A program made the position numbers and the translations under genes. From positions 229,851 to 293,850 of the IMG/VR virus record IMGVR_UViG_3300027804_000038: a stretch of 64,000 nt of DNA; one strand, written 5' to 3'. The stretch comes from a virus. Lineage: Duplodnaviria; Caudoviricetes. The notes beneath the pieces were generated by a model that searched no databases, was not told the origin of the DNA, and worked only from the letters and a program-made list of their open reading frames with translations. This document shows, piece after piece, positions 8,359-35,528 of this stretch (position 1 is the first letter of the stretch; each line of letters starts with the position of its first letter).

Positions 8359-8436
8359 GGTGTCTATAGTGTTAGCGGTCTAGCACGAAGGGTTGTGGTT
8401 CCTTTAGCACCAGTTCGAATCTGGTTAGACACACCA
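8359..8436 (+). tRNA. tRNA-His(GTG), G-1, CCA encoded
   Basis: AAGGG-TTGTGGT-TCCTT. Confidence 0.88.
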
Positions 8437-13343: not shown

Positions 13344-14969
13344 ATGGCTAAATTCAGAAACACAGGATTAAAAGAGAAGTTGGACTCTACAAAACCAAAG
13401 AAAAATCTCGTCGCAAAAATGTCGGTTCCTAAACCAAACACAACTAACCTACAAGGTTATGAAGCTTATGATATCGATAATTGGCTACGACTAATCTCAC
13501 TGTTAAACACATCAAAACTTCAACCACAATTTTATCGTTCAGAGAATGATACAATGCGTGAACTGAAGAAATTAATTGATGTATGTGGTAAAGAAGACCC
13601 ATACTTCGCGGCACAGTGTATTGTATACTCTCGTTGTGTCGGAGAAGGTATGCGTTCAATCAACCACTTGGCGGCCGTTTACTTGGCACCATATATGAGT
13701 GGTAAAGAATGGTCAAAACGTTTCTTCTCCGTATGGGATAAGAAAAACCAAAAAGGTGGAACGATTTTCCGTCCTGATGATATGGCAGAAATCGTTGCGG
13801 CATATACTGCGATGAATGATAAGAGTATCACAAACGCAATGAAAAAAGGTTTCCGTGAAGCACTTGAAAAAATGGATGCTTATAGTCTGTTAAAGTACAA
13901 ATCGGCAGTACTTGACATGATTAATTTGGTACATCCAGACCCAAATGAATCAAAAGCTCTTGTTGATTACATGGATAAAAAAGTACCAGCGTTCGAAGCA
14001 ATCATTAAAGGGTATAATGTATCTGCGGATACTTGGGAAGTTGCACAATCTGACGCAGGTCAAATTGTTGCACAAGCGGTTCGTGAAGGTAAACTCTCAG
14101 AATCAGAAGCTAAAGAAGTATTAACTGAACAAAAGTCAGAAAACTGGAAAGGGTTATTGACTGAAGGTAAGTTGGGTATTTTGGCCGCTATTCGAAATAT
14201 GAGAAACATTCTTACCAACAAACCTGAGGCGAAAACAATTGACACTCTGTGTGATTTGGTTTCAAATCCTGAATTGATTAAAAAAGGTAAGATTATGCCA
14301 TACCAACTTGACTTGGCAAATGAAGTAATGAACTCTGAGTTTAGTGATACTAACTCAAGAAAGTTGTCAAAAGCTTTATTGACAGGTTATGAGTTGGCGG
14401 TTCCGAACCTTAAAGAACTACTTACAGGTAACAACCTTGTAATCATTGATATGTCAGGTTCTATGGACACTGAAGTACTTGACCCTAACAGAAAAACAAA
14501 TTACAAGAGTACTTGTATGGATAAAGCAAGTCTAATCGGAATGACAATTGCTAAGGCGACAAATGCAGATGTTATCCGTTTCGGTTCAAGTGCTGAGTAT
14601 ATTACTTATAACCCTAACCAAGATGTGTTCAGTTTGGCAAAATCTATCCGTAAAGGAATGGGTGGTACAAACTTGTCACAAGCTTGGGCGAAGGCTCAAA
14701 GTTCAGGTAGAAAATACGACCGTGTTTTTATCTTGTCTGACAATGAGTGTAACATGGGTTCAACATACCGTAATTATACAAGTTATGTTGAAAAGGTTGG
14801 TGACCCATACGTATATTCAATTGACCTAGCATCTTACGGAACTACCGCAATTGCAGGACCTAAAGTAAGATACTACTACGGTTATGGATACTCAATGTTT
14901 GATGATATCGCTAAGAGTGAGTTCAACCCAAACTATCATATTGAAAAAATCCGTAAGATTGAAATTTAA
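13344..14969 (+). CDS. rsr: Ro60/Rsr ribonucleoprotein (TROVE plus vWA)
   Basis: 541 aa; TROVE-type N-terminus (LNTSKLQPQFY, G-M-R-S), vWA IDMSGSM, GGTNLS, VFILSDNE, YSIDLASYG. Confidence 0.85.
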   Translation: MAKFRNTGLKEKLDSTKPKKNLVAKMSVPKPNTTNLQGYEAYDIDNWLRLISLLNTSKLQPQFYRSENDTMRELKKLIDVCGKEDPYFAAQCIVYSRCVGEGMRSINHLAAVYLAPYMSGKEWSKRFFSVWDKKNQKGGTIFRPDDMAEIVAAYTAMNDKSITNAMKKGFREALEKMDAYSLLKYKSAVLDMINLVHPDPNESKALVDYMDKKVPAFEAIIKGYNVSADTWEVAQSDAGQIVAQAVREGKLSESEAKEVLTEQKSENWKGLLTEGKLGILAAIRNMRNILTNKPEAKTIDTLCDLVSNPELIKKGKIMPYQLDLANEVMNSEFSDTNSRKLSKALLTGYELAVPNLKELLTGNNLVIIDMSGSMDTEVLDPNRKTNYKSTCMDKASLIGMTIAKATNADVIRFGSSAEYITYNPNQDVFSLAKSIRKGMGGTNLSQAWAKAQSSGRKYDRVFILSDNECNMGSTYRNYTSYVEKVGDPYVYSIDLASYGTTAIAGPKVRYYYGYGYSMFDDIAKSEFNPNYHIEKIRKIEI

Positions 14970-15004: not shown

Positions 15005-15153
15005 ACTCAGGTGGCGAAAGTGAGAACATTCTAGATAATGACTCCTGGTAGACGTAACATATGGTTATAGCAATGTGGGTTAAAAATCATCTGAACAAGA
15101 TGTGGTCACTATAATGGCAGCCCGTGGAGGTTCGAATCCTTCCCTGAGTACCA
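15005..15153 (+). ncRNA. 149-nt expanded tRNA mimic next to Ro60
   Basis: ACTCAGG/CCTGAGT-A-CCA, GGAGG-TTCGAAT-CCTTC, split D arm GGCGAAAG...GGTAGACG. Confidence 0.7.
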
Positions 15154-15305
15154 ATCGTTACTATTAAGTAACAACCCAACCAAGGGCAATGCGGGTTCAT
15201 ACCTGCGGAGCAAGGTGACGACCAGGAAAGACTGGTATATTTATGATTATGTATAATTTTATAAAAATAGATATTTTAATAATATTTATTATTATAACAA
15301 TTATT

Positions 15306-16097
15306 ATGGGTAAAAGATTTGTCATTACTGAAGAAGAAAGAAAAGAAATAAAAAAACAACACGGTATTGCAGAAGATTGGTGGGACGATACTGTTGAATT
15401 TCTTAAAGACACAGGTGAAAAAATAGGAGATTTTGTCTCTGATATTTTTACTGATAGTGATGAAGAGGAGAGTAAAGATGCAGAAGACCTTAAATCATCA
15501 GATTTTTCTTCAGAAGAGAAAAAAGAAATTGAGAAAAAATTAGAAGATACTAAGAAAGAATTATCTTCAAAAATAACAGACTCAAGTTTAAAAGGATTTA
15601 ACTTTGATAAGATACCTGATGGTAAAAATAACTACAGGTCGGCTCAAATAACTGCTGATTTGATTCCATTGGTTATTAAAAAGTATGGTATTAAGAGAAT
15701 TATAAGATTTAATGGTGATGACGGAGACGCTAAACATGCGGGTAAACAAGGTCCGAGCATTAGTGAAGAAAAACGTATTTGTGAGAGTAATGGATGTGAA
15801 TTTTATAAATTATCATCAACTAGAAACCAAGATAAAGTTAATTCTTTATTAAAACAAGGTAATACTCTAATACATTGTGCTCACGGTGCGGATAGAACAG
15901 GTGGTAATGTTGGTGGTTATCTATATGATATAGGATGGGGAGACACAAAAAAAATATGGGATTATACCACAAAATACAATTCATGGGAAAATATGGTAAT
16001 TAATAACCCATCTAAGTTTACAAATGGAGGTTATTTAAATCAAGCCAAAAAGTTTGGGGTCAAAGATATAGAACAAGCTAAAAAATTAAGTAAATAA
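15306..16097 (+). CDS. Tyrosine/dual-specificity phosphatase with acidic N-terminal leader
   Basis: YRSAQ, LIHCAHGADRTG active-site motif. Confidence 0.8.
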   Translation: MGKRFVITEEERKEIKKQHGIAEDWWDDTVEFLKDTGEKIGDFVSDIFTDSDEEESKDAEDLKSSDFSSEEKKEIEKKLEDTKKELSSKITDSSLKGFNFDKIPDGKNNYRSAQITADLIPLVIKKYGIKRIIRFNGDDGDAKHAGKQGPSISEEKRICESNGCEFYKLSSTRNQDKVNSLLKQGNTLIHCAHGADRTGGNVGGYLYDIGWGDTKKIWDYTTKYNSWENMVINNPSKFTNGGYLNQAKKFGVKDIEQAKKLSK

Positions 16098-16134: not shown

Positions 16135-16617
16135 ATGAATAACGAAATCAAATACAAACCAACAAAAGAGGCGATTATTGGATATAGTGATTCTAAAATT
16201 GCCCAAAGCGAAACAAACGATTGTGTTGTTAGAGCAATTGCGTCGGCTTTTGAAATGCATTATGATGAGGCACACGACTTTGTTGCAAGTAATTGGTTTC
16301 GTAGAAATCGTGAGGGAACAAGAAACTTCATTGGAGGTATGCGTAGTATGGTCGACAAAGGAGTTTTAATTAACGGTAAATCATTTTCCAATTTGGGTGA
16401 CCAACATGGTCATATGAAATATGACGTTAAAGTTAAAGGTCAAATTGTTAAACGTAATATGACCACAGGAACTTTTATCAAAAAATTCCCAAAAGGTCGA
16501 TACGTTGTGGTTGTTCGTGGACATGCTTTCTCAATCATTGACGGAGTTGTTGTTGGTAATACAGGTGATGCTAAAATGAAGAAGCGTGTTATTTTGTATT
16601 CTTGGAGAGTTTTATAA
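16135..16617 (+). CDS. Conserved phage hypothetical protein
   Basis: NDCVVRAIA, VVRGHAFSIIDG. Confidence 0.65.
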   Translation: MNNEIKYKPTKEAIIGYSDSKIAQSETNDCVVRAIASAFEMHYDEAHDFVASNWFRRNREGTRNFIGGMRSMVDKGVLINGKSFSNLGDQHGHMKYDVKVKGQIVKRNMTTGTFIKKFPKGRYVVVVRGHAFSIIDGVVVGNTGDAKMKKRVILYSWRVL

Positions 16618-16714: not shown

Positions 16715-16853
16715 TGACGTAGTAAGAATAGAGTTACTTCGCATATTGGTTCGAATCCAATATTTGCCGCAATTTTGGCAGATTAGACAAATGGATAAGT
16801 CGACGGTCTCATAAACTGTTATAGAAAAACAACCTCTACTCGTTTTCTCGTCA
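16715..16853 (+). ncRNA. Carrier RNA 1 enclosing a circularly permuted tRNA(CAT)
   Basis: Order is T arm, 3' acceptor, linker, 5' acceptor, D arm, anticodon arm, inside TGACG/CGTCA and TAGAG/CTCTA stems. Confidence 0.85.
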
Positions 16854-16860
16854 TAAAATA

Positions 16861-16994
16861 TTGATTGATAGTAATAGATAAGGTTACTTCGTAAAATAGC
16901 TCAATTGGATGAGCATTTGTATCAGGAACAAAAGGATACGGGTTCAACTCCCGTTTTTACAACCAAAAAAACCTTCCTAACTTTCTTCAATCAA
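16861..16994 (+). ncRNA. Carrier RNA 2 enclosing an unpermuted tRNA(CAG) with CCA
   Basis: TTGATTGA/TCAATCAA and AAGGTT/AACCTT stems; cloverleaf 16890-16965. Confidence 0.82.
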
Positions 16995-17001
16995 ACTTAT
17001 T

Positions 17002-17133
17002 ATCAGATAGTGAAGAGACAGTTACTTCAAATTTTTCTGGAACAAAAAAGGCTCGGGTTCGAATCCCGACTCCTCTTCGGGGGATGTGGTGTAGCGGTAG
17101 CACTAGATAACACTGTTTCTATTTTCTTCTGAT
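17002..17133 (+). ncRNA. Carrier RNA 3 enclosing a permuted tRNA(GGA) with UUCG-capped acceptor stem (YrlA-like topology)
   Basis: ATCAGA/TCTGAT and AGAGACAG/CTGTTTCT stems; order is anticodon arm, T arm, closed acceptor, D arm. Confidence 0.82.
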
Positions 17134-17138
17134 TAAAC

Positions 17139-17222
17139 GCCGAGGTGATGAAAAGGTAGACATGACAGACTTAAAATCTGTTGGGCAGTTCGCCCGTGCG
17201 GGTTCGAATCCCGCCCTCGGTA
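17139..17222 (+). tRNA. tRNA-Leu(TAA)
   Basis: ACAGA-CTTAAAA-TCTGT, long V arm. Confidence 0.92.
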
Positions 17223-17231
17223 CTAAAACAA

Positions 17232-17306
17232 GCCTCCATAGCTCAGCAGGTTTAGAGCGACTGATTTGTAATCAGTAGGTCGTTGGTTCGATTCCGACTG
17301 GAGGCT
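17232..17306 (+). tRNA. tRNA-Thr(TGT)
   Basis: ACTGA-TTTGTAA-TCAGT. Confidence 0.92.
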
Positions 17307-17317
17307 CTAATATATAT

Positions 17318-17392
17318 GCTCGGTTCGTCTAGACTGGTCTAGGACACTACCCTTTCACGGTATAAACACGGGTTCGAATCCCGTACCGAGTA
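17318..17392 (+). tRNA. tRNA-Glu(TTC)
   Basis: TCGTCTAGACTGGTCTAGGAC D arm, loop CTTTCAC. Confidence 0.9.
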
Positions 17393-17395
17393 CTA

Positions 17396-17481
17396 AATGA
17401 AGTAGTAAGGATAAGAGTTACTTCGCAAATTACTTTTAATGATTCAAGCAAAAACAAACTCTTTCCAACGTTCTCTTCATT
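17396..17481 (+). ncRNA. Carrier RNA 4 enclosing an isolated Lys(TTT) anticodon stem-loop
   Basis: AATGAAG/CTTCATT and AAGAGTT/AACTCTT stems; AATTA-CTTTTAA-TGATT. Confidence 0.78.
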
Positions 17482-17486
17482 AATTT

Positions 17487-17571
17487 GGGAGTGTCACCAT
17501 AGCGGCGATTGGCCCGCACTGTAAATGCGGTACCTAAGGTTCCATCGTAGGTTCGAGTCCTACCGCTCCCA
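17487..17571 (+). tRNA. tRNA-Tyr(GTA)
   Basis: CCGCA-CTGTAAA-TGCGG, long V arm. Confidence 0.9.
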
Positions 17572-17572
17572 C

Positions 17573-17787
17573 AAAACACGACGAAAATAGGATTAAAGCT
17601 CCTGTTATCACGACACCAAGATACGGTACGAGTGCGCGCTTAATGACTGTTGCGGTGAGGAGGGAATAAGTAGGGTTTAGCTAACCCAATTACGAAAACC
17701 TCATAACAAAAATAAAGGACCACCAATCTCAGGTGGTGTAATAAAATGTTTGGGTCGGATGTGGATAATGCTTCCACGCAGTGTTTT
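17573..17787 (+). ncRNA. Candidate structured ncRNA at end of RNA operon
   Basis: Terminal stem AAAACAC/GTGTTTT encloses several hairpins; GC-rich, no long ORF. Confidence 0.45.
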
Positions 17788-17862
17788 AAATTTAAAAAAA
17801 AAACAAACTTTAAAAAGGGCCCTTCCTGAAATATTGGCTTGTTGGGCCCGAGTTTGTTAAAT

Positions 17863-17890
17863 CCCCCACCTTTTGAGTGGGGTTTTTTAT
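17863..17890 (+). terminator. Intrinsic terminator
   Basis: CCCCAC..GTGGGG plus T run. Confidence 0.7.
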
Positions 17891-23958: not shown

Positions 23959-24033
23959 GAAGAAGTAGCTCAGACGGTAGAGCATAGGGTTAGAAATCCC
24001 TTGTGCCGCGAGGTTCGATTCCCGCCTTCTTCA
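23959..24033 (+). tRNA. Atypical tRNA with 8-nt anticodon loop (TTAGAAAT)
   Basis: GAAGAAG/CTTCTTC, canonical D arm, bulged T stem. Confidence 0.65.
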
Positions 24034-28526: not shown

Positions 28527-29258
28527 ATGTTCAAGTTCTATGAGGTCGGAGGTAAAATAAGAGACGAAATCCTTGGTTTAAAATCAAAGGATGTTGATTA
28601 CGTTGCGGTACCAAGTGACGAGTTAATTAATGATATTAGCTCACCTCATTCTATGTTTGGAATACTCGAAGGATTTTTAAAAGAAGAAGGTTTTGAAATA
28701 TTTTTAATTACACCTGATTGTTTTACGATTAGAGCCAAGTTTCCCCAAGGGCATACATACGAAGGTGTTGCTGATTTTGTAATGGCGAGAAAGGAATTGG
28801 GATATATTCCTGGCACAAGAACTCCATTGGTTAAACCAGGAACTCTATACGATGATTTGGAAAGACGTGACTTTACATTAAACGCATTGGCTAAAGATTC
28901 AGATGGAAACATTATTGATTTCTTTGGTGGTGAGGATGATTTGAAACATGGTATGTTAAGAACACCACTAGATTGTAAAGTAACTTTTGATGATGACCCT
29001 TTACGTATTTTGAGAGCAATTAGGTTTTCAATTACTAAGGGATTTACTATGTCTAGAAAGATAGTTGAAGAAATATACATCTACGACTACGACAATAAAA
29101 TGTCTGTAGTATCTACAGAAAGAATCAGAGAAGAGCTCCTCAAGTGTTTTAAACATGACACGATTAAAACATTAAACACTTTGGAGGAGTTTTACAGATT
29201 AAGAGATTATATCTTTAAAAACAATATTTTGTGGTTAAAACCAACTTTAGAAAAATGA
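28527..29258 (+). CDS. cca: tRNA nucleotidyltransferase (CCA-adding / poly(A) polymerase family)
   Basis: VGGKIRDEILG..KDVDY, DLERRDFTLNALA, DDPLRILRAIRF. Confidence 0.9.
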   Translation: MFKFYEVGGKIRDEILGLKSKDVDYVAVPSDELINDISSPHSMFGILEGFLKEEGFEIFLITPDCFTIRAKFPQGHTYEGVADFVMARKELGYIPGTRTPLVKPGTLYDDLERRDFTLNALAKDSDGNIIDFFGGEDDLKHGMLRTPLDCKVTFDDDPLRILRAIRFSITKGFTMSRKIVEEIYIYDYDNKMSVVSTERIREELLKCFKHDTIKTLNTLEEFYRLRDYIFKNNILWLKPTLEK

Positions 29259-34373: not shown

Positions 34374-35528
34374 ATGAAAATGATGGAAAATAATAATTCA
34401 GTGTGCTATGTAGCACGTATTGACGAAATTAAAGAAATACCTGGCGCTGATAACATTGTACAAGGTGTTATTGGAGGATGGAATTGTATTATTCAAAAAG
34501 AACAATACCAAGCTGGCGACTTAGTAGTTGTTGCAACTACAGATGCGGTTATTCCTTTAGATTTATCTGATGCGATGAACGTGACTAATTATTTACGTAA
34601 AGGTCAACGTGTACGTACTGTTAAGTTGAGAGGTGTTTATTCTGAATGTTTAATCATTCCTTTAAAATACGCTCGTGAAGTAGCTAAACATGCTAACACA
34701 AAATGGGATGAAGGTGAAGACATGATGGATGTATTAAAGATATTTAAATACGAACCACCTGCAGTACAAATACAATTATCTTCAGGTAAAAAGGTAAGAT
34801 ATCACCAAAACCCGAACTTCCATGTTTACTATAAGTTCCCAAACTTGAAGAATGTTGCAGGAATGTTTACCGAAGAAGATACTGTTGAAATTACTCGTAA
34901 AATTCACGGTACAAATGCTCGTTATGGGATTGTTAAGAAAACTAAATTAACATTATGGGATAAGTTTAAGAAGTTTATTGGATTGGCGGATAAATGGATT
35001 GAGTATGAGTATGTGTATGGTTCTCATAATGTTGAAAAGGGGTCCGACTCACAAGGGTTTTATTCAACTGATGTGTGGAGAGAGGTTGCTGACAAATACC
35101 AAATCAAAAAGAAGTTATGGGATTATGTTAAAAACAACGCTATGGAACCAGAAATTGGAGATGGGATTACAATATACGGTGAAATCTATGGTGCGGGTAT
35201 CCAAAAGAACTATGAATACGGTTTAAATGATATTAAATTTGTGGGGTTCGATGTTAAAGAAAACGGAGAGTATTTAAGTCCTATTAATGCTAAACTACAG
35301 ATTAAATATCTTTTAGAATTGCCATATGTCGAAATCTTACATTTCGGAAAATGGTCTCAAGAGGTACAAGACAAATATACATTTAATAACTTTATTGAAG
35401 GTACAAAAGTACCACATGAAGGTATTGTGATTAAATATGAGTCGGGTGGACGTAATAAAGTGGCAAAAGTAATCAACCCAGATTATTTAATTTATGCTGA
35501 AAAAAAGGATGTTGGGGACTCTCACTAA
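34374..35528 (+). CDS. RNA ligase, DRB0094-like with N-terminal OB domain
   Basis: EIPGADNI, motif I KIHGTN, YGEIYG, FDV, EGIVIK, KVIN. Confidence 0.88.
   Translation: MKMMENNNSVCYVARIDEIKEIPGADNIVQGVIGGWNCIIQKEQYQAGDLVVVATTDAVIPLDLSDAMNVTNYLRKGQRVRTVKLRGVYSECLIIPLKYAREVAKHANTKWDEGEDMMDVLKIFKYEPPAVQIQLSSGKKVRYHQNPNFHVYYKFPNLKNVAGMFTEEDTVEITRKIHGTNARYGIVKKTKLTLWDKFKKFIGLADKWIEYEYVYGSHNVEKGSDSQGFYSTDVWREVADKYQIKKKLWDYVKNNAMEPEIGDGITIYGEIYGAGIQKNYEYGLNDIKFVGFDVKENGEYLSPINAKLQIKYLLELPYVEILHFGKWSQEVQDKYTFNNFIEGTKVPHEGIVIKYESGGRNKVAKVINPDYLIYAEKKDVGDSH

Follow-up and report, generated by a model that had tools for sequence, protein, structure and literature searches.

A putative class of Ro60-associated Y-like RNAs with interchangeable inserts in large phages and bacteria

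The terminal 64 kb of a 293,850-bp jumbo-phage record in IMG/VR (hereafter the window; the phage is found in freshwater, lake and estuary metagenomes of 13 studies) contain four copies (c1–c4) of one RNA scaffold near a gene for Ro60. Our comparative analysis reveals the same scaffold, loaded with different inserts, beside Ro60 genes of other large phages and of bacteria. We infer, with a probability of about 0.7, that the scaffold RNAs are Y-RNA-type partners of one Ro60 branch, in which an invariant handle would dock on Ro60 and the insert would serve as an effector module. They display features of the Y-RNA class, namely proximity to Ro60 on the same strand, a terminal stem with a conserved bulged helix and a variable distal module. 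A literature search retrieved no published description of the scaffold, and the RNAs apparently form an undescribed structural class of Ro60-associated Y-like RNAs. A preliminary description of the window had proposed a phage Ro60/Y-RNA-like system with swappable tRNA modules; its core interpretation is supported by every computational check that it had suggested and appears largely right, with Ro60 binding and function deduced from sequence and genomic context.

Architecture and covariation of the scaffold

We located exactly four copies of the pattern TAGTR-N(6-14)-GTTACTTC in the window (16720, 16869, 17008 and 17403, all on the + strand), where 0.06 would be expected, and none elsewhere in the 293,850-bp genome. 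R2, a covariance model trained on homologues, recovers c1–c4 (37.6–73.4 bits) with no other match in the 64 kb. The four dispersed copies noticed at first are thus confirmed, together with their terminal stems (TGACG/CGTCA, TTGATTGA/TCAATCAA, ATCAGA/TCTGAT and AATGAAG/CTTCATT), the second stem, the invariant GTTACTTC and the A-rich 3' strand.

The consensus starts with stem 1, 5–8 bp of any sequence that covary and close the 5' and 3' ends. It is followed by a bulged U (100% conserved), R-G paired with Y-C, a second bulged U (100%) and A-A paired with U-U, that is, a bulged helix in which 5' G-U-RG-U-AA stands opposite 3' UUCY-C. A bulge of 4–6 nucleotides (nt; AANNW) in the 3' strand separates this helix from stem 2 (7–10 bp, covarying, ending in G:C). 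After stem 2 comes the 5' UUACUUCG, whose U, C, U and C are invariant and in which the base following the G is never G; it forms an invariant internal loop opposite an A-rich 3' strand (consensus AAAACA) that leads back into stem 2. The variable apical insert (~15 to 230 nt) sits after UUACUUCG.

The preliminary description had taken TAGT(A/G) to be unpaired. Comparison of 74 homologues reveals a helix with two one-nucleotide U bulges instead: A2 forms AU with the last U of 3' UUCU in 54 sequences, GC in 19 and GU in one and is unpaired in none, the G3:C pair never changes, and A5 and A6 are matched by UU, so that only the two Us are bulged. The invariant unpaired or bulged nucleotides (U7, U10, U31, C33, U35 and C36) point to sequence recognition, and such an invariant sequence of paired and bulged bases is what would be expected of a protein docking site.

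Pairing of the stems is maintained by covariation. Across the 74 sequences, 91.7% of the cells form a standard pair (64.4% in shuffles), 365 cells are changed on both sides (120 in shuffles), and both-side changes are found in 16 of 18 pairs (shuffle mean 13.5). The covariation score is 0.642, as compared with 0.171 after shuffling; none of 500 shuffles reached 0.642, and slid controls stayed at or below 0.147. Because this alignment was fitted to the covariance model, two independent observations matter. In the set collected by regular expression, every TGGTAA pairs with ...TTCC and nearly every TAGTRA with ...TTCT; two TAGTGA copies of locus L129 end in TTCCT, and their pairing is still kept. 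A plain MAFFT alignment of the c1 type has compensatory changes in all four tRNA-like arms as well as in stem 2. When all short members were aligned with MAFFT, their 3' halves came out misaligned, and a cleaner 11-sequence subset and a covariance model were therefore used. Taken together, the comparisons show the scaffold to be, as read from these alignments, a sequence-invariant handle with covarying stems.

Two further pairings were considered. Pairing of UAGUAA with UUACU of the invariant motif was rejected, since the A-to-G change at position 2 is always accompanied by a U-to-C change at the 3' end. Closure of the insert by UUC and a 3' GAA holds for minimal members and in only 27 of the 74 sequences, and a UACAUC variant (U-to-A) is uncompensated; this closure is not established.

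Association with Ro60 in phages and bacteria

The open reading frame (ORF) described as a phage Ro60 indeed carries TROVE and Ro60-type vWA domains (Table 1). A profile of three orthologues matches the Ro60 of Thermus phage phiLo (9KOP/9L5Y, 1.6e-26), the nearest solved homologue at ~26% identity to the window protein, and Xenopus laevis Ro60 (1YVP, 1e-8). An alignment search fetched 46 viral loci whose Ro60 is 34–79% identical to that of the window, in which a structure-aware regular expression detected 47 distinct scaffold RNAs. R1, a covariance model from 11 short members, gave 111 matches in the 46 loci and the window, and those in Ro60-oriented loci are all on the Ro60 strand. A scaffold RNA stands beside Ro60 in about 44 of 46 viral contigs and in 14 of 16 bacterial loci, with Ro60s 30–79% identical to that of the window. 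The nearest copy is less than 2 kb from Ro60 in 30 of 31 non-redundant viral loci, with one to six copies per locus, and in the closest relatives it begins 10–118 nt past the Ro60 stop codon; in the window, Ro60 is separated from the array by an inserted tRNA-like element and two inserted ORFs. Viral Ro60 loci without a match lack flanking sequence, and with R2 a match is recovered in L157 and, as a cut copy, in L127.

The linkage is to Ro60 rather than to tRNA genes. Six loci contain Ro60 and scaffold RNAs but no tRNA genes, and the window's own 17-tRNA array at 2.4–8.6 kb is free of scaffold RNA; together, these observations indicate that the scaffold goes with Ro60 and not with tRNA arrays. 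The rest of the gene neighbourhood varies across the scaffold–Ro60 loci, with homing endonucleases, dCMP deaminase, isochorismatase, NAD synthase, an RNaseH-like protein and a cREC domain protein each present in a minority.

Specificity was assessed in several collections. A bare-pattern scan of IMG/VR (14 specified bases) returned mostly chance matches, 3 of 118 loci being real; the architecture is complete in these three contigs, two of which have a Ro60 gene within 1–2 kb. In a control of 926 kb of unrelated viral DNA pre-selected for the sequence pattern, R1 matched only in L087, L027 and L028, of which L087 and L028 encode Ro60 and L027 is a 62%-complete fragment. In GenBank LR745206.1, the scaffold (~240624–240695) lies 400 nt upstream of a Ro60 33% identical to that of the window. 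Beside distant phage Ro60 genes (Vibrio phiKT1024, Gordonia Neville and Thermus phiLo), the scaffold model found no match, and blastn against GenBank phages returned tRNA similarity only.

The family is not phage-specific. In representative prokaryote genomes, 16 loci encode this Ro60 branch (Saprospiraceae, Neolewinella persica DSM 23188, Aureispira, Bacteroidales, Anaerolineaceae and Babeliales metagenome-assembled genomes), and 14 of them carry a scaffold RNA on the Ro60 strand, usually just upstream. The 7.1-Mb genome of N. persica contains only two matches, both flanking rsr; in NZ_KB890417.1 they lie at 106163–106272 and 106320–106427, with rsr at ~104629–106098 on the minus strand. Among 121 genomes of its order two have matches, each of them immediately upstream of Ro60, whose gene is in one case truncated by the end of the contig. 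Genomes without Ro60 returned no match. In the cellular copies UUACUUCG is invariant, the first bulge can be C, and some have T arms; the copies beside rsr hold GC-rich non-tRNA inserts. Rfam returned nothing on the cellular copies at E ≤ 1. The scaffold family is distributed over large phages and Bacteroidota-like bacteria and, as far as genome comparison shows, almost exclusively linked to one Ro60 branch. The co-occurrence with TROVE genes anticipated by the preliminary description is borne out, as is the Y-RNA-like character of the system.

Several further genes were observed near Ro60. An RNaseH-like protein (PF04308) is encoded ~0.5 kb downstream of Ro60 in eight loci (e.g., L145:12265-12744 and L161:7807-8292), and a cyclic-phosphate-processing receiver domain protein (cREC_REC, PF20274) near Ro60 in five loci; these neighbours hint at RNA-end processing. 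A tRNA with anticodon CTA ('Pyl' according to ARAGORN) lies near Ro60 in L143, L144, L145, L152, L154, L165, L166 and L167, which suggests that these phages have amber-suppressor tRNAs and possibly recode TAG. The Ro60-locus arrays of L146, L158 and L161 include phage tmRNA genes.

Inserts and the RNA array of the window

The four cargos, each of a different main type of the family, differ in topology and anticodon (CAU, CAG, GGA and UUU), as had been described. In c1, stem 1 pairs 16715–16719 with 16849–16853, U-AG-U-AA at 16720–16725 pairs with UUCU at 16845–16848, stem 2 ends at G16733, and UUACUUC occupies 16734–16740. Its cargo is a tRNA permuted in the variable loop, with the order T arm, loop-closed acceptor stem, D arm and anticodon arm (loop CUCAUAA, anticodon CAU), so that the scaffold occupies the place of a class-II long variable arm; ARAGORN run on the doubled cargo reports a tRNA(CAT) spanning the junction. 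In c1-type orthologues of seven other phages all arms are kept, with 16 of 27 pairs showing compensatory changes, and the anticodon loops read CUCAUAA (four times), CUUAUAA, CUUAAAA and CUGCAAA. Because the c1-type permuted tRNA keeps all its arms by compensatory change, the insert modules are shown, at the level of sequence, to be under purifying selection.

The c2 cargo is a complete linear class-I tRNA (16890–16965) with anticodon CAG, a C1xA72 mismatch, A73 and an encoded CCA, with the last C of the invariant UACUUC serving as its position 1. It is recognized by ARAGORN and, alone among c1–c4, by the Rfam tRNA model above threshold (RF00005, 16890–16962, 59.9 bits, threshold ≥29); a sister cargo in L155:7769-7898 likewise has C1xA72, A73 and CCA. 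In c3 the break lies between the D and anticodon arms, giving the order anticodon arm (loop CUGGAAC, anticodon GGA), T arm, UUCG-closed acceptor stem and D arm, a topology also found in L027, L131:9487, L151:8843 and L141:6201. The c3 match to the tRNA model (27.2 bits) is a spurious alignment, and both c1 and c3 are recognized as tRNA only after circular re-joining. The c4 cargo is a bare 5-bp/7-nt hairpin closed by G-C and C-G pairs, whose loop CUUUUAA is identical to that of the phage tRNA-Lys(UUU) (4005–4081); the same hairpin cargo recurs in L150:4585 and L130:3020.

About 85 distinct RNAs were collected from the family. The cargos are modular, as first proposed, but only about 40% of the members contain tRNA parts (linear, in two circular permutations, or without acceptor stem), and the others carry hairpins or larger domains. 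A canonical T arm is present in 34 of the 85 RNAs and an anticodon-type hairpin (5-bp stem, 7-nt loop, U33 and purine 37) likewise in 34, with both present in 22, and ARAGORN on doubled inserts reports 7 linear and ~12 permuted tRNAs. Inserts in other phages include acceptor-less tRNAs, with the scaffold in place of the acceptor stem, and non-tRNA domains of 190–265 nt, whereas minimal members of 64 nt present only a 3–4-bp UUCG/YGAA hairpin. The cargo anticodons largely duplicate those of ordinary tRNAs of the same phage (Gly-UCC, Gln-UUG, Glu-UUC, Lys-UUU and Met-CAU), which argues against a decoding role. Gene finders will call some inserts ordinary tRNA genes (e.g., a 'tRNA-Leu CAG' for c2), thereby inflating phage tRNA repertoires.

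The array lies on the + strand at ~16.7–17.6 kb and is tightly packed in the order c1, c2, c3, tRNA-Leu, tRNA-Thr, tRNA-Glu, c4 and tRNA-Tyr, the ordinary tRNA genes being interleaved with scaffold RNAs at AU-rich spacers of 2–10 nt (Table 1). Such packing points to a single precursor that would be cut at tRNA boundaries. After tRNA-Tyr, ~290 nt of structured non-coding DNA precede a terminator-like hairpin that likely marks the end of the array transcript. This non-coding segment (17573–17863, +) folds better than shuffles (z = -3.34, none of 100 as good) and possibly represents another structured RNA of the array.

Table 1. Features of the Ro60 gene and the RNA array in the window
Feature	Position	Strand	Evidence
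Phage Ro60, 541 aa, TROVE HEAT-repeat ring and vWA/MIDAS	13344-14969	+	Pfam TROVE 7e-6, vWA_Ro60 3.2e-5
Scaffold RNA c1	16715-16853	+	R2 48.0 bits
Scaffold RNA c2	16861-16994	+	R2 45.6 bits
Scaffold RNA c3	17002-17133	+	R2 37.6 bits
tRNA-Leu(TAA)	17139-17223	+	ARAGORN, Rfam tRNA
tRNA-Thr(TGT)	17232-17307	+	ARAGORN, Rfam tRNA
tRNA-Glu(TTC)	17318-17393	+	ARAGORN, Rfam tRNA
Scaffold RNA c4, minimal member	17396-17481	+	R1 79 bits, R2 73.4 bits, fold
tRNA-Tyr(GTA)	17487-17572	+	ARAGORN, Rfam tRNA
Intrinsic-terminator-like hairpin and T run	17864-17882	+	Terminator scan

Other features of the window concern its tRNA-related content. The tRNA-like element inserted after Ro60 (15005–15153, +, 149 nt) starts 36 nt past the Ro60 stop codon and combines an expanded interior with a canonical T arm, an acceptor stem (ACTCAGG/CCTGAGT) and A73-CCA; near its 5' end it holds GGCGAAAG (15013–15020), which fits the YrlA motif for Rsr, GNCGAAN0-1G. 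Two ORFs follow before the array (15243–16097 and 16135–16617, +; 284 and 160 aa) that are absent from this place in the closest relatives, the first having only a weak match to the tyrosine-phosphatase family (E = 0.0033, below the cut-off). Rfam tRNA matches at 8360–8433 and 23959–24033 (+; 53.3 and 52 bits), missed by ARAGORN, may be unusual tRNAs or tRNA-like elements. The window also encodes a nucleotidyltransferase of the CCA-adding/poly(A)-polymerase family (PF01743, 58.5 bits, ~28539–28961, +) and an Rnl2-type RNA ligase (PF09414, 55.7 bits, ~34881–35474, +), and a search of the phage genome for RtcB found none; this equipment is compatible with a setting of tRNA damage and repair.

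Comparison with known RNAs and proposed role

YrlA-type Y RNAs adjoin Ro60 in more than 250 bacteria and 22 phages; Y RNAs lie within 2 kb of Ro60, at least two per species, one tRNA-like and one a simple hairpin, and come from a single precursor (PMC4201824). Further structural variants were expected in Ro60-bearing species in which no YrlA had been found (PMC4201824). Like YrlA and YrlB, the scaffold RNAs are small, lie less than ~2 kb from Ro60 on the same strand, are several per locus, and have paired ends with a conserved recognition element. The occurrence of at least one tRNA-like RNA per genome beside simple hairpins is common to both, and processing of YrlA/YrlB from a common precursor resembles what is presumed for the scaffold array. 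In addition, c3 arranges its T arm, closed acceptor stem and D arm as the YrlA core does, and these three arms are also present in c1.

There are also differences. Whereas YrlA replaces the anticodon stem with a Ro-binding helix, c1 and c3 retain their anticodon arm as a free stem-loop, the tRNA of c2 is linear, and a tRNA core is missing from c4. In place of GNCGAAN0-1G, the motif proposed to contact Rsr (PMC4201824), the scaffold has a two-U-bulge helix and the UUACUUCG/A-rich loop. Unlike YrlA, a single scaffold accommodates many insert topologies, including linear tRNA with CCA, two permutation points, acceptor-less tRNA and bare anticodon stem-loops. Consistent with the distinction from YrlA made in the preliminary description, the Rfam YrlA model (RF02553) reaches at most 16.3 and 15.9 bits in the window, as compared with a gathering threshold of 69, and has no match at gathering; the 15.9-bit match aligns the T arm, acceptor hairpin and D arm of c3 (17048–17104) to model positions 26–82. 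A search of the region against Rfam, at gathering and at E ≤ 10, returned no family except tRNA. Matches to YrlA, permuted tmRNA, mascRNA and the Tymo tRNA-like structure were all at noise level, on the T arm, and were rejected.

Among phage systems, the Ro60 of phiLo binds host PNPase as well as two phage RNAs encoded next to it (PMC12135203). It thus also has at least two phage partner RNAs, Yrl1 and Yrl2, beside its gene, and its experimentally demonstrated ternary complex with a host exonuclease is the tether model applied here to the scaffold RNAs. The phiLo RNAs, in contrast, were selected for an internal bulge containing CGAA and do not resemble tRNA. In Deinococcus radiodurans Yrn1 and animal Y RNAs, Ro60 recognizes a bulged helix of the termini while the distal module binds effectors such as PNPase, and the tRNA-like arms of Yrn1 can be ordered differently from those of YrlA; these RNAs differ in having a GGUCCGA-type helix, no complete tRNA or anticodon loop, and one arrangement per family.

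Two resemblances outside the Ro60 field were considered. Dictyostelium Class I RNAs similarly combine a short terminal stem with an ensuing invariant unpaired 5' motif and a variable remainder (PMC7919456). Unlike these, the scaffold places two stems and the bulged helix between its termini and the motif, and the invariant A10 and A11 are unmatched. The letters UUAC..C are common to the scaffold and the 11-nt Class I motif. This resemblance was set aside as a weak lead, being a weak partial motif match with no such Rfam family at E ≤ 10. Permuted or split tRNA genes (Cyanidioschyzon merolae and some archaea) share with c1 and c3 the gene order and intact arms. They mature into working tRNAs via a bulge-helix-bulge motif, splicing endonuclease and circular intermediates, whereas in c1 and c3 the acceptor end is loop-sealed and a conserved non-tRNA scaffold fills the break.

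On the basis of these comparisons, we propose the following model. The array would be co-transcribed with the neighbouring tRNAs, and host tRNA-processing and AU-site nucleases would release single RNAs. The outer surface of the Ro60 ring would be contacted, as in the Y RNAs of animals and bacteria, by the invariant bulged helix close to the RNA ends and possibly by the UUACUUCG loop as well. The insert would act as an effector module: tRNA-shaped heads, not chargeable in most members, would show an elbow and/or anticodon loop and tether tRNA-recognizing proteins to Ro60 or sequester them, with host exonuclease, modification or repair enzymes and tRNA-cleaving defence nucleases as candidate targets. 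Each phage would thereby carry a panel of one to six adaptors with different heads. Since the heads are mostly unchargeable and redundant for decoding, recruitment or sequestration of tRNA-recognizing proteins is the most likely role.

Several points weigh against this proposal. The scaffold has none of the Ro60-contact motifs described before (GGUCCGA for animals, GNCGAAN0-1G for YrlA and CGAA for phiLo Yrl), its consensus being instead UAGUAA...UUACUUCG; CGAA can follow UACUU only if the next two bases are A, and the first of them is A in 20 of 74 sequences. Two cellular Ro60 loci have no R1 match within 1.5-kb flanks, although R2 finds an RNA in one of them, and a search among the neighbouring genes for a constant protein partner besides Ro60 found none. 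The tRNA-like element 15005–15153 could be a canonical Ro60 partner. As for expression, exact-match contigs of metatranscriptome libraries cover, at low depth, 15000–15187, 16899–17113, 17410–17582 and 17587–17838, and a 1.5-kb RNA-library contig of a relative joins the Ro60 3' end to c1–c3, without the tRNA-like element and two ORFs in between. These contigs, which may stem from contaminating DNA and give no RNA ends, strand or abundance, weakly suggest that the array is transcribed.

A more ambitious version of the proposal is conceivable, though we regard it as tentative. The handle, as a Ro60-binding element, may serve as a universal display stand onto which phages and some bacteria graft tRNA presentations, giving a panel of uncharged look-alikes with which Ro60 would capture, neutralize or redirect specific tRNA-recognizing enzymes. 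The presentations might comprise a whole tRNA, a tRNA opened at the variable loop or between the D and anticodon arms, an acceptor-stripped tRNA or the anticodon loop only, and in phages the targets might include host anticodon nucleases. If true, the RNAs would be programmable adaptors in conflicts centred on tRNA, and the invariant UUACUUCG loop would represent a new motif for protein recognition.

Alternatively, the RNAs could be cassettes for tRNA maturation, in which the scaffold is a processing or stability handle, the cargo a working tRNA freed or re-joined from linear and permuted precursors by RNase P, RNase Z and RNA ligase, and Ro60 a mere neighbour or a quality-control chaperone. 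The complete tRNAs of c2 and L155:7769, which have A73 and an encoded CCA and start exactly at the end of UACUUC, would fit this idea, as would the packing of scaffold RNAs into tRNA arrays with tRNA-like spacers, the CCA-adding-type nucleotidyltransferase and Rnl2-type ligase of the genome, and the M. smegmatis YrlA, which is cut by RNase P and then receives CCA (PMC4201824). We nevertheless consider it unlikely: a linear tRNA is present in only 7 of 85 members, about half have no tRNA part yet keep the full scaffold, the permuted cargos have loop-sealed acceptor ends (including a UUCG tetraloop), the cargo anticodons mostly duplicate ordinary phage tRNAs, the bacterial copies by rsr hold GC-rich non-tRNA inserts, and the scaffold tracks Ro60 instead of tRNA arrays. 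The related suggestion of tRNA-splicing precursors in the preliminary description finds no support, given the absence of RtcB and, at the leader/trailer junction, of a bulge-helix-bulge motif, in which 3-nt bulges in opposing strands are separated by 4 bp; in the scaffold, the junction helix bears two 1-nt bulges in one strand with 2 bp between them, besides the 4–6-nt 3' bulge.

It also seems improbable that the RNAs are stand-alone decoys that soak up host anticodon nucleases, with a merely stabilizing scaffold and a dispensable Ro60. Canonical 7-nt anticodon loops with U33 and purine 37 occur in 34 of 85 members, and the loop copied by c4 and by the same hairpin in two other phages is that of tRNA-Lys(UUU), a classic anticodon-nuclease target. 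Moreover, the mimicked anticodons are redundant with the phage's own tRNAs for decoding, and the phage carries tRNA-repair enzymes. However, about half of the members lack an anticodon-like loop, the family also lies beside rsr in bacterial chromosomes, where phage counter-defence makes no sense, and a free decoy leaves the Ro60 linkage, co-orientation and sequence-invariant handle unexplained.

It is very doubtful that the true Y RNA is the element 15005–15153 with its YrlA-type GNCGAANG, the scaffold RNAs binding another protein or acting as cis leaders or trailers of the Ro60 operon: its position directly after Ro60, acceptor stem, T arm, CCA end and GGCGAAAG speak for the element, and many scaffold RNAs lie in the Ro60 5' region and could belong to its mRNA, but GNCGAANG is estimated to match by chance about once per 15 such regions, Rfam gave no match to the element, YrlA included, the closest relatives (L125, L126, L129 and L130) leave no room for it between Ro60 and the scaffold RNAs, no protein but Ro60 constantly adjoins these RNAs, and their placement upstream, downstream or several kb from Ro60 fits trans-acting RNAs better.

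Ro60 and Y RNAs are conserved from bacteria to humans, and the present family bears on the role of the tRNA-like part in bacteria and on the mode of Ro60 recognition outside animals. If the scaffold RNAs are indeed docked on Ro60 as we propose, the family would provide a second, sequence-unrelated Ro60 handle and thus permit a comparative dissection of recognition. As the same handle is combined with different tRNA topologies or with none, the role of the tRNA-like head would become directly testable, and members are available in the cultured N. persica DSM 23188 and in widespread freshwater jumbo phages.

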